Shown here in pieces: positions 12,001 through 15,000 of a stretch of DNA of 64,000 bases; position 1 is the stretch's first letter, and each line of letters begins with the position of its first letter. Source of the stretch: an uncultured Bacilli bacterium (GTDB lineage Bacteria; Bacillota_I; Bacilli_A; RF39; UBA660). Position numbers: made by a program. The stretch covers positions 12,980 through 76,979 of the forward strand of contig CARMXJ010000001.1 in assembly GCA_949025205.1 (NCBI GenBank). The letters are read 5' to 3'.

Positions 12001-15000
12001 TTTAATATTAATGGACATCATGATGCCAGAAATGGATGGAATAGAAACGTTTAACAAATTAAAAGAAATTGAAAATTTTCATACACCTGTAGTTACGTTA
12101 ACAGCTGATGCTGAACCTAATGCAAAAGAAAAATATCTTGATTTAGGTTTTAACGAGTATATTTCTAAACCAATAAGCTTAGAAATACTAAAAGAAATTA
12201 TCAAACAATATAAATAAAAAAGGAGTATTAAAAAATGAGAGAATTAAAAATTAAAGGAATATACAAACATTATAGTGGAGATTTGTATATTGTAGAAGAT
12301 ATTATCTATAATAGTGAAAATTGTGAAAAAATGGTGGCTTATCGCGCACTTTATGAAGATGGAAAACTATGGTGTAGGCCTTATGAAGAATTTTTAAGCG
12401 AAGTAAACAAAAATGGTCAAAAATATAGATTTGAATTACAAGAAATAAATAGTAAAAACGAAAATCATAAATAATGTAAAATTTTGTCGAGTGATTCTAT
12501 AATTAGAATTGCTTTTTATATGCTAAACTACTTTCTTAGTAACAAAGGATGCAGAAAAAAATATCTTCTACATCAACCGTAGAAGAAAACAGAAAGGAAT
12601 CCTTATGATAGAAATATTTGATAAAGAAATGAAAAGAATTATTGATAGTATTAAGAAAGATATAATAAATACAAGAAACAAAATAAGATATAGCGCAAAT
12701 ACAGAACTGATAAATATGTATTTTAGAATGGGTAAAAACATTAGTGAAAATGCAAAATACGGAGCAAAATTTATAACTACATTATCTATTTCATTAAAGT
12801 TAGATTTTCCAGATGCAGTAGGATTTTCAGAAAGAAATTTATGGAGAATGAAAGCTTTTTATGAGCAGTATAAAGACTTAAAAGTTCTGCCACCAGTAGT
12901 GGCAGAATTACCATGGACACATAATTATATACTTATAGAAAAAGTAAAAGATAAAGATAAAAGACTTTGGTATGCTGAAGAATGTTTAAAGAATGGTTGG
13001 TCAAAATCAGTACTAATACATCAAATCGAATTAGAATTATATGAAAGAAAAAAACTATCTAATAAGCTAACTAATTTTAAACAAAAAATAGAAATAAAAA
13101 ATAATAGTGATTTGGCAAATGAATTAATAAAAGACCCTTATATTTTTGAACTAGAAGGAATAAAAGAAAATTATATGGAAAAAGAGTTAGAAAAGTATAT
13201 GATTACAAGAATTAGAGATGTTCTTTTAGAATTAGGAAAAGGATTTAGTTTTATAGGAAACCAATATAAAATTAGCACAGATAATCATGATTATTATGTG
13301 GATATGTTATTCTATCATTTAGATTTAAGAAGTTACGTTGTTGTAGAATTAAAGACAAGTGAATTTAAGCCTGAATATGCTGGTCAATTAGGATTTTATG
13401 TAAAAGCTATAGATAAAATTTTAAAAAAAGAACAAGATAATCAAACCATAGGATTGCTATTGTGTAAAGAAAAGGATAGACTTTCTGTGGAATGGTCATT
13501 AGATTCTATGAATGTTCCAATTGGAGTTTCATCTTATAATATTATTAATAAAGTCTCAGATGAAATATTAGATAAATTACCTACTGAGGAAGAAATAAAT
13601 AGGTATATTTCCATAAAGAAAAAATAATTGTATTTATTGATTTGATTTTTTAAACATTAACGATAAATAATTTCTATTTGAATTTGTAAACAAAAATTTT
13701 GTCGAGCGATTCTAGAAGTAGAATTGCTTTTTATATGCTAAACTATTTTCTAAATTTTAAAAAGGAGTTTTTTATAATGAACGAAATAGTAAGCGAACAA
13801 GTAAATATAGAAGAATTAATATATGAAATACGTGGCAAACAAATAATGTTAGATTCTGATTTAGCTAAACTTTATGGGGTAGAGACCAAAAGAATAAACG
13901 AATCTGTGGCACGTAACAAAGAAAAATTTCCAGAAAGATTTTCGTGGTTCTTAACTGCAGACGAGGAGATAAACTTGAGGTCGCAAATTGCGACCTCAAG
14001 TAAAAATAAATATGGTGGAAGAAGATACAAATGTAGAGTTTTTACAGAACAAGGTATCGCCATGCTAAGCACAATATTAAAATCAAAAGTTGCAGTAGAA
14101 ATCAGTATTCAAATTATGGATGCATTTGTTGCTATGAGAAAGTATATTGGAGCAAATCTTTTAGAACAAAAATATATTAACAACCAAGTAATGAAAAATA
14201 CAGAAGACATTCATTTATTACAAGAATCTTTTTCTAAATTAGAAGAAAAAAGAAAAGTAAATGAAATCTATTTTAATGGACAAATATTTGACTCTTATTC
14301 AAAAATAGTAGATATATTTAAAAGTGCTAAAGAAGAATTAATTATCATAGACAGTTATGCAGATAAAACAGTATTAGATATGATAAAAAATAGAAAAATA
14401 AAAGTTTTTTTAATTGTAAAAGCAAATGCAAATTTAAACCATTTAGATATAGAAAAATACAATAAGCAATACAGCAATTTAACAGTTATATTTAATAATA
14501 CTTTTCACGATAGATATTTTATACTAGATAAAAAAACAATATACCATTGTGGTGCTAGTATTAACCATGCAGGAAGCAAAACGTTTTCTATAAATACATT
14601 AGAAGACCAATTTGTAAAAGAAGCACTAATAAATAGTACAAGGGATTTCATTGATTAATAAAAGAAAGTAGCGTAAAATAAAGAAAAGAAAGCATAAAAG
14701 GGTTAAAATAAATGGAAACAATCATTACAGATGAATGGATACAATACAAATCTGGATTCATTTCAGGAAAAAACGCGATAGTAGAAGCATTTAAATTAGG
14801 AAAAATATTAAATTTAAATGAGAAATCAACACAAGAGATACAAGCTACTTGGTACACATTTGGATTTCAAGATGGATTTGCTTATTTTTCTAAGTTAATT
14901 GATACGAATAGGTTAGATTTAGCAAATATAAATACAAAAGAAATAATAGCAGAGGCATTTAAAAAAAGAGTAATGGAATATAACCAAGAAAAGCAAGAAG

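Follow-up and report, generated by a model that had tools for sequence, protein, structure and literature searches.

A solitary YhcG-like nuclease gene flanked by a 59-nt direct repeat: a probable insertion with long target duplication

Why should two adjacent genes of different families be preceded by almost the same palindromic sequence? The question is raised by a stretch of 64 000 nt from an uncultured Bacilli bacterium (contig CARMXJ010000001.1, positions 12 980 to 76 979, forward strand; this whole stretch is referred to as the window), where nearly identical segments, R1 and R2, stand upstream of a YhcG-like nuclease gene and of an ORF6N-domain gene, respectively. The original prediction, made from the sequence of the window, offered two answers: either insertion of the nuclease gene brought in a copy of its neighbour's promoter/operator, or both genes are co-regulated through one operator. 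We consider it very likely that the repeated segment (R) is the native 5′ flank of the ORF6N gene, which was duplicated as the target when a 1156-bp single-gene nuclease segment was inserted. A puzzling ‘duplicated operator’ would then be explained as the scar of a gene insertion. The genes and segments concerned are as follows.

12235 to 12474, + strand: DUF1653 gene, upstream neighbour lying outside the putative mobile unit; upstream of the ORF6N gene also in the nuclease-free loci L098 and L180
12478 to 12536, + strand: R1, upstream copy of the 59-nt segment, starting 4 nt past the DUF1653 stop codon; differs from the single-copy relatives at all four variable positions
12537 to 13692, + strand: insert between the copies, 1156 bp (68-nt leader, nuclease open reading frame (ORF), 65-nt trailer)
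12605 to 13627, + strand: YhcG-like nuclease gene with DUF1016_N and YhcG_C PD-(D/E)XK domains; PADLOC family PDC-S02
13693 to 13751, + strand: R2, downstream copy, ending 25 nt before the ORF6N ATG (13777); nearer than R1 to the single copy of L098
13777 to 14658, + strand: ORF6N-domain gene, PADLOC family PDC-S05, resident in a conserved block; its own 5′ region is the putative duplicated target

The repeat and its single-copy counterparts

R1 and R2 form a direct repeat of 59 nt with 55 identical positions (93%). The original prediction had reported it as a 55-bp duplicate (12482-12536 and 13697-13751), and its degenerate consensus was matched exactly, at these two places only in the 64 kb. 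The distance of 40-70 bp to a gene start claimed for both copies is right for R1 (68 nt to the ATG at 12605) and wrong for R2 (25 nt to the ATG at 13777). Both copies have the same orientation, the hairpin core of R also occurs twice in the window, and none of 100 shuffles yielded two matches. Local alignment of the 700 nt upstream with the 700 nt downstream of the nuclease ORF gave a score of 98; the null, made of mismatched locus pairs from the genome set considered below, had a mean of 25.6 and a maximum of 40. As the arrangement and both repeats were base-identical in independent assemblies of the same organism (contigs from two NCBI metagenome-assembled genomes (MAGs) and several Logan runs), they are not an assembly artefact.

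The ORF6N gene opens a conserved block with the order ORF6N, rhodanese, ..., DUF3795, DUF218, ..., Zip, DUF5131. Three contigs from two related lineages (L098 and L180; L099) have the ORF6N gene in the same gene order and have no nuclease gene; they provide the comparison of loci with one of the two genes that the original prediction proposed. In L098 and L180 (ORF6N proteins 76% and 75% identical to that of the window) the order is DUF1653-hyp89-ORF6N-rhodanese, continuing in L098 to DUF3795-DUF218; in L099 (71% identical) it is DUF5301-ORF6N-rhodanese...DUF218...Zip-DUF5131. Each of the three contigs has exactly one R-like copy, next to the ORF6N gene on its upstream side, to which R1 and R2 can both be aligned. 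This single copy at nuclease-free sites indicates that R is the native ORF6N 5′ region, duplicated around the insert. R1 and R2 differ from each other at four positions, two of them within the hairpin loop; R1 departs from L098 at all four, and R2 equals L098 at three. L095-L097, selected through their orthologues of the histidine kinase gene that lies upstream, gave no empty site, since these genomes differ from the window past the response regulator gene.

These relatives bear out the core of the first answer given above, namely that the nuclease gene was inserted; the additional copy is best seen as a duplication of the target and not as a sequence brought along by the gene.

Parts of the repeated segment

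Three parts could be distinguished within R, in the order given here.

12478 to 12493 (R1) and 13693 to 13708 (R2), + strand: conserved box AAAATTTTGTCGAGYG, from the four-sequence alignment of R1, R2, L098 and L099
12489 to 12514, + strand: R1 hairpin, 11-pair stem, loop TAAT, followed by a T-run; -10.4 kcal/mol, z ~ -3.8
13704 to 13729, + strand: R2 hairpin, 11-pair stem, loop GAAG, followed by TTTAT; -12.9 kcal/mol, z ~ -3.8
12519 to 12529, + strand: extended -10-like element TATGCTAAACT (TRTGn + TAnnnT) of R1, read from the sequence and aligned in relatives
13734 to 13744, + strand: the same extended -10-like element in R2

The box, which precedes the hairpin and can be written as AAAATTTTGTCGAG(Y)G across the R copies (also AAAATTTTGTCGAGCG or AAAATTTTGTCGA), has its first 13 nt invariant in all four sequences; an UP-element-like or protein-binding role is possible. 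The ATTCTA-N4-TAGAAT inverted repeat of the original prediction is present, and as RNA it extends to the 11-pair stem in both copies. A terminator scan flagged the R2 hairpin as terminator-like. Across the four sequences (a small sample for covariation) 3 of the 11 pairs were altered on both sides with pairing kept, 3 further pairs were altered on one side in a wobble-compatible way, and two G-U pairs were conserved. The dyad of L099 differs in sequence (CGATTTC...GAAATCG) and still pairs. Such compensatory changes in the L099 stem, the conserved G-U pairs and the T-run that follows argue for an RNA terminator hairpin rather than a protein-binding palindrome; judged by these features, the palindrome is more likely to be a terminator than an operator.

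The extended -10-like element has the counterparts TGTGTTAGAGT in L098 and TATGTTACACT in L099, with TRTGnTAnnnT kept in all four sequences. In R2 this element is likely to be the native ORF6N promoter, and in R1 it is a predicted promoter which now likely drives the nuclease gene. Both activities of R, termination and promotion, are predicted from these sequence features. The arrangement recalls the terminator plus extended -10 module that is ordinary between genes in Bacillota, in that a U-run hairpin closely follows a stop codon and TRTGn-TAnnnT lies ~30 nt before the next start codon; it differs in being present twice, through duplication, and in the 13-nt invariant box before the hairpin.

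The nuclease gene

The product of the inserted gene scored 142 and 195 bits against its two Pfam domains (cut-offs ~33) and matched PADLOC PDC-S02 with E 1.5e-121. Residues D233, E248 and K250 were invariant in a 41-sequence family alignment, the D...E-x-K motif being intact. By these signatures the protein belongs to the YhcG/DUF1016 PD-(D/E)XK family and is a predicted nuclease. It is solitary, with no cognate methyltransferase partner. A sequence search of PDB with the nuclease gave no match. The AlphaFold model was of moderate quality (mean predicted local distance difference test score 69, nuclease domain poor), and a Foldseek search of PDB with it gave weak PD-(D/E)XK matches only (NucS/EndoMS and MspJI; E>0.01), which we used solely to confirm the fold class. 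YhcG has been described as an uncharacterised PD-(D/E)XK family that lacks a conserved gene neighbourhood and is closest to YraN and the Holliday-junction resolvases of archaea (PMC1189080).

Between the window and the closest nuclease loci (76-83% nucleotide identity), DNA homology is limited to the ORF, from ~14 nt before the ATG through at most 25 nt past the stop codon, and the contexts of the closest homologues are unrelated, e.g. FtsK/SpoIIP or an aldolase-like gene. Relatives with 55-81% protein identity were seen in MAGs of Clostridia, Bacilli, Mollicutes, Spirochaetia, Bacteroidales, Melainabacteria, Methanocorpusculum and Methanobrevibacter. Judged from such flanks, the nuclease gene is a wanderer among genomic contexts. 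As to vehicles, the clade was not found in IMG/VR viral contigs, nor the window locus in plasmids; the Pfam lists of neighbours contained no integrase, transposase or other recombinase within ~8 kb of the nuclease gene. The insert holds no second gene and has no terminal inverted repeats at its ends.

One same-organism contig (L002 2377-3400, MAG GCA_948629555.1) has the nuclease gene split by a frameshift into ORFs of 223 and 107 aa; the split could be due either to gene decay in that strain or to a sequencing error. The 68-nt leader contains two overlapping, mutually exclusive hairpins at 12548-12586 (GATGCAGAA..TTCTACATC and TCTTCTAC..GTAGAAGA), which are terminator-like on the minus strand, and a 19-codon ORF, the stop codon of which overlaps the ATG of the nuclease gene. 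We considered whether the leader is the decayed remainder of a duplication that had covered the ORF6N ribosome-binding site and first codons; its nucleotide alignment was no better than alignments of shuffles or of other gene starts, and the same was true of the leader peptide against 120 ORF6N N-termini, so this reading was rejected.

Flanking duplications across the nuclease family

The alignment of upstream with downstream 700-nt flanks was carried out for every locus, with a score of at least 50 taken as the threshold. In the genome set 11 of 83 loci reached it, with duplications of 33-499 bp; two borderline loci (24-25 bp) had a score of 40, equal to the null maximum. An independent metagenome set added 2 of 51 loci (duplications of 184 and ~75 bp; null maximum 42). 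Among neighbour ORFs of similar length, taken as controls, 6 of 189 reached the score, so that the comparison is between 13/134 nuclease loci, from highly diverse bacteria and archaea of the gut, and 6/189 control ORFs (Fisher one-sided p=0.014).

The duplicated sequence differs from locus to locus; L070 and L068 appear to go back to a single event. The downstream copy usually starts 0-60 nt past the nuclease stop codon. The first case seen was L010, where the nuclease gene (81% identical) has FtsK and SpoIIP on its two sides and the 35-nt flanking repeat (89% identical) is the FtsK terminator. Several duplications include the terminator hairpin of the upstream gene; that of L036, located within a type I restriction-modification (R-M) cluster, is the 3′ end of the upstream coding sequence, and that of L077 extends over an entire leader and into the first codons of the gene that follows. 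The 13 duplication-bearing inserts shared no end motif and no terminal inverted repeats, and no recombinase was seen near the duplication-bearing loci where neighbours were examined. Among the papers searched we found no report of long-target-duplication behaviour for YhcG/DUF1016.

Several features of these loci were observed in passing. In L077 (3304-6651) two occurrences of the Rfam COG3943 RNA motif (3679-3779 and 5310-5409) fall in the 499-nt duplication around the nuclease gene; immediately to the left of this duplication is a tRNA gene, and its second copy is followed by a further, divergent DUF1016/YhcG paralogue. COG3943 corresponds to the RhuM family; PADLOC places that family together with ORF6N-type proteins in PDC-S05. 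The downstream neighbours of duplicated nuclease cassettes (L064, L070, L048, L036, L115) are often genes of defence-island type: Schlafen/AlbA_2 with HATPase_c_4, a KilA-N protein, AAA_14 with DUF4143, a type I R-M specificity subunit and a YhcG paralogue.

Linkage to ORF6N genes

ORF6N-like sequence was present in the fetched flanks of 8 of 84 nuclease loci of the genome set and 3 of 80 of the metagenome set; most homologous loci have no ORF6N neighbour. In two of the linked loci (L013, L032) the nuclease gene lies just downstream of the ORF6N gene, and in the window it lies just upstream. In four loci the cassette is inside the ORF6N gene, after about codon 28 (..MLDS|DLA..):

L015, 3785 to 5110: nuclease cassette in ORF6N gene
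L017, 3745 to 5050: nuclease cassette in ORF6N gene
L078, 3790 to 5060: nuclease cassette in ORF6N gene
L155, 1006 to 1220: nuclease cassette in ORF6N gene

Cassettes of L015, L017 and L078 have conserved arms (left arm ~110 nt) and a terminal inverted repeat of 10-11 bp (CCAAATGTCAY / RTGNCATTWGG), whose innermost pair varies as C-G, U-A and U.G. They could represent a transposon-like version of the same gene, or the two ends could pair at the RNA level. The recurrent linkage suggests that the nuclease gene prefers this target, that both genes reside in the same defence-type hot spots, or that the two candidate defence genes form a functional pair.

The latter status follows from family matches. 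The ORF6N protein matched PADLOC PDC-S05 with E 2.9e-90, and PDC-S02, the family of the nuclease, is likewise a candidate phage-defence family; protection of E. coli from T7, T5 and T4 has been reported for one PDC-S05 representative, and not for the PDC-S02 representative that was tested (bioRxiv 10.1101/2024.09.26.614923). By family match, then, the nuclease and ORF6N genes are candidate defence genes. The DUF1653 gene had no PADLOC match; of the three genes in the proposed ‘mobile or defence-type cluster’ two have such matches, and DUF1653 is merely the upstream neighbour.

Possible route of insertion and its consequences

The duplication, the single copy at nuclease-free sites, the recurrence of duplications in the family and the hairpin kept by compensatory change are all observed; for the way in which the duplication arises, we can only infer a route. 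Native R would consist of the conserved A/T box, an intrinsic-terminator hairpin insulating the ORF6N gene from the gene upstream and an extended -10 promoter. Two breaks or nicks would occur at a distance of tens to hundreds of bp from each other, either on the two opposite strands or on two sister chromosomes; they would plausibly be the work of the incoming nuclease itself. A fragment with the nuclease gene would be joined between the break points, and the 59 bp between them would be left on both sides of the insert. After that, R1 would continue to terminate DUF1653 transcripts, and its promoter would now drive the nuclease gene, whose 68-nt leader appears to have no promoter of its own; R2 would terminate the nuclease transcripts and leave the ORF6N gene on its original promoter.

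Because the duplicated piece would hold both a terminator and a promoter, the insertion would disrupt nothing, and the nuclease and ORF6N genes would be co-expressed. Such co-expression from identical promoters is likely to be a by-product and not the reason for the repeat. An insertion can thus be harmless when the terminator and promoter of the target are both doubled, with neighbouring genes remaining insulated and expressed.

One could speculate further that the YhcG/DUF1016 gene is an autonomous single-gene mobile element: its own product would break the DNA at two offset positions, separated by tens to hundreds of bp and frequently placed around hairpin-forming terminators, the gene would be captured between them, and the 5′ region of ORF6N/RhuM-type (PDC-S05) defence genes would be preferred. 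We regard this extension as unlikely. If true, it would mean gene mobility free of a transposase, and would account for insertions of restriction genes with long target duplications that are otherwise unexplained. In any case the result points to this uncharacterised and very widespread family (PDC-S02), seen in gut Bacillota, Bacteroidales, spirochaetes, Melainabacteria and methanogens, as a wandering single-gene unit that repeatedly has long target duplications of variable length on its two sides. A one-gene family with about a dozen independent events would be a convenient system for testing nuclease-driven duplication, and its recurrent linkage to ORF6N (PDC-S05) hints at a target preference or at a functional pairing of two candidate defence genes.

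Alternative explanations

Could R be kept in two copies for regulation? A regulator, the ORF6N protein or another one, would bind ATTCTA-N4-TAGAAT twice and so control both genes. Near-identical copies upstream of two adjacent genes are what such an operator would look like, ORF6N is a DNA-binding domain family, and the 13-nt invariant box beside the hairpin could be a binding site. The relatives argue otherwise: they have a single copy and no nuclease gene, so that co-regulation cannot be the origin of the repeat. Furthermore, the dyad sequence is not conserved at the orthologous L099 site, where the pairing is kept, with conserved G-U pairs and a T-run after the stem; two of the four differences between R1 and R2 fall in the loop; and other nuclease loci duplicate entirely different sequences. 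With the covariation of L099 and the single-copy relatives against it, the shared operator as the source of the repeat, the second answer of the original prediction, is unsupported, and we consider it quite improbable. About the same small chance is left to an attachment site, at which a circular molecule of R plus nuclease gene would have integrated into a resident R, by a site-specific recombinase acting in trans or by RecA-dependent recombination of Campbell type. Campbell integration does give the geometry R-insert-R; nuclease genes recur beside ORF6N genes, a possible source of homology; and a crossover at the far left of R would fit a donor-derived R1 carrying all four differences. On the other hand, neither the insert nor the surrounding ~8 kb has a recombinase gene, the closest nuclease homologues have no adjacent R, and no single attachment site accounts for duplications which at other loci vary in sequence and in length (24-499 bp).

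The least probable explanation, to which we give hardly any weight, is that R is a dispersed repeat (of the kind of repetitive extragenic palindromes (REP) or miniature inverted-repeat transposable elements (MITE), or similar to integron attC) that flanks the nuclease gene by chance. The element is indeed short, palindromic and intergenic. However, the 64 kb contain two copies only, in the same orientation and around one gene, and other copies were found only at the orthologous position upstream of ORF6N in relatives. The REP/MITE-like repeat named in the original prediction as what would refute it did not materialize: beyond R1, R2 and those orthologous copies there were none in the window or the relatives, and the plasmid, phage and viral-contig collections had no matches. 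An Rfam scan of the whole 64-kb window matched no family, and a third remnant of R, looked for downstream of the DUF5301 gene, was not found. Several particular candidates were rejected as well. For integron attC (‘59-base element’; RYYYAAC ... GTTRRRY) reading of the sequence gave only look-alikes with one mismatch and in the wrong order, and no IntI was among the neighbours; for Xer/dif-like sites it gave loose look-alikes in wrong order or with wrong spacing, and there was no integrase. An insertion sequence or DNA transposon does not fit an insert that has no terminal inverted repeats and no transposase, with duplications of 24-499 bp across loci.

Duplication of the native ORF6N flank upon insertion of the nuclease gene has points against it too. 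The nuclease-free sites come from related species (ORF6N identity 71-76%), and none is from the species of the window, for which every contig found bears the insert and identical repeats and no presence/absence polymorphism was seen. Loss of the nuclease gene in the relatives through R1×R2 recombination is formally conceivable; it would need the same original duplication. A detectable duplication is present at only ~10% of homologous loci, and the control rate given above is not zero, most of those control ORFs being tandem paralogues. The R1 hairpin has the weaker stem, below the G+C threshold of the terminator scan, and was not flagged; no -35 hexamer is present upstream of the extended -10-like elements in the R copies. 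In the literature we found no demonstration of any activity of a YhcG-family protein and, in the papers on long, variable duplications, no mechanism for them.

Comparison with known systems

Furuta et al. (2010) described ‘insertion with long target duplication’ for restriction genes, in cases with no other mobility genes (PMC2853133). This type of insertion has been known from genome comparison at least since that survey, which cites an earlier Helicobacter pylori study; its cases include a solitary Type IV nuclease gene (mcrA), the repeats often span translation starts or stops, and double-strand breakage was suggested as the common factor (PMC2853133). A case was recognized there by a nuclease gene in the insert, an insert of <20 kb with no mobility genes, a repeat of >30 bp, and alignment of both repeats to a single copy at the empty site. 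The window has a lone nuclease ORF in a 1156-bp insert, a 59-bp repeat and empty sites (in related species) in L098, L180 and L099. A full R-M pair is absent, the nuclease being solitary; this is comparable to the mcrA case and therefore not disqualifying. A further criterion is that the repeat be absent from the rest of the genome; within the 64 kb analysed it occurs as R1 and R2 only. The window locus is very probably an insertion with long target duplication, a new case of a known and little-studied insertion type.

In common with the cases of that survey are the small insert, a restriction-type nuclease gene, the absence of a mobility gene and direct repeats of >30 bp and variable length. 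Three things are different: the gene of the window is from the uncharacterised YhcG/DUF1016 family (PDC-S02) and lacks a partner methyltransferase; as hosts we find gut Bacillota, other gut bacteria and methanogenic archaea, in contrast to mostly naturally competent proteobacteria; and the nuclease-free sites come from related species instead of strains of the same species.

Free-standing homing endonuclease genes, e.g. the seg and mob genes of phage T4, move by double-strand-break repair, which leaves the target unduplicated. Here, as there, a single nuclease gene lies between or at the edge of conserved genes and is patchy among relatives, with repeated linkage to one type of neighbour (ORF6N) and, in four loci, to one codon position; unlike there, the target is duplicated, and an ORF6N neighbour is absent from most of the homologous loci. 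Classical insertion sequences and transposons are also surrounded by direct repeats of host sequence; their duplications have a fixed size of 2-15 bp, whereas here we see 59 bp in the window and 24-499 bp elsewhere. The window copy has no inverted repeats, and the subgroup of L015, L017 and L078 has those of 10-11 bp.

Other observations

The slot between the DUF5301 gene and the R/ORF6N block carries a different cargo in each genome: nothing in L099 (587-610); HAD-hyp-ORF6N'-DUF1653-hyp89 in L098 (508-3257); acyltransferase, histidine kinase, response regulator and DUF1653 genes in the window (9407-12477). The conserved box thus seems to have a recurrent insertion point at its left edge.

A T-box leader (RF00230) in L097 (7020-8174) is separated from its aminoacyl-tRNA synthetase gene (Pfam tRNA-synt_1 family) by an ORF6N gene that has 55% identity to that of the window.

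Elsewhere in the window, at 30448-34619, there is an array of 3-4 repeat units of 50-194 nt, 65-91% identical. Each unit combines the 3′ end of a small paralogous gene with a conserved intergenic box, and the units alternate with ORFs of ~240-340 aa (30672-31673, 31903-32616 and 32850-33884).

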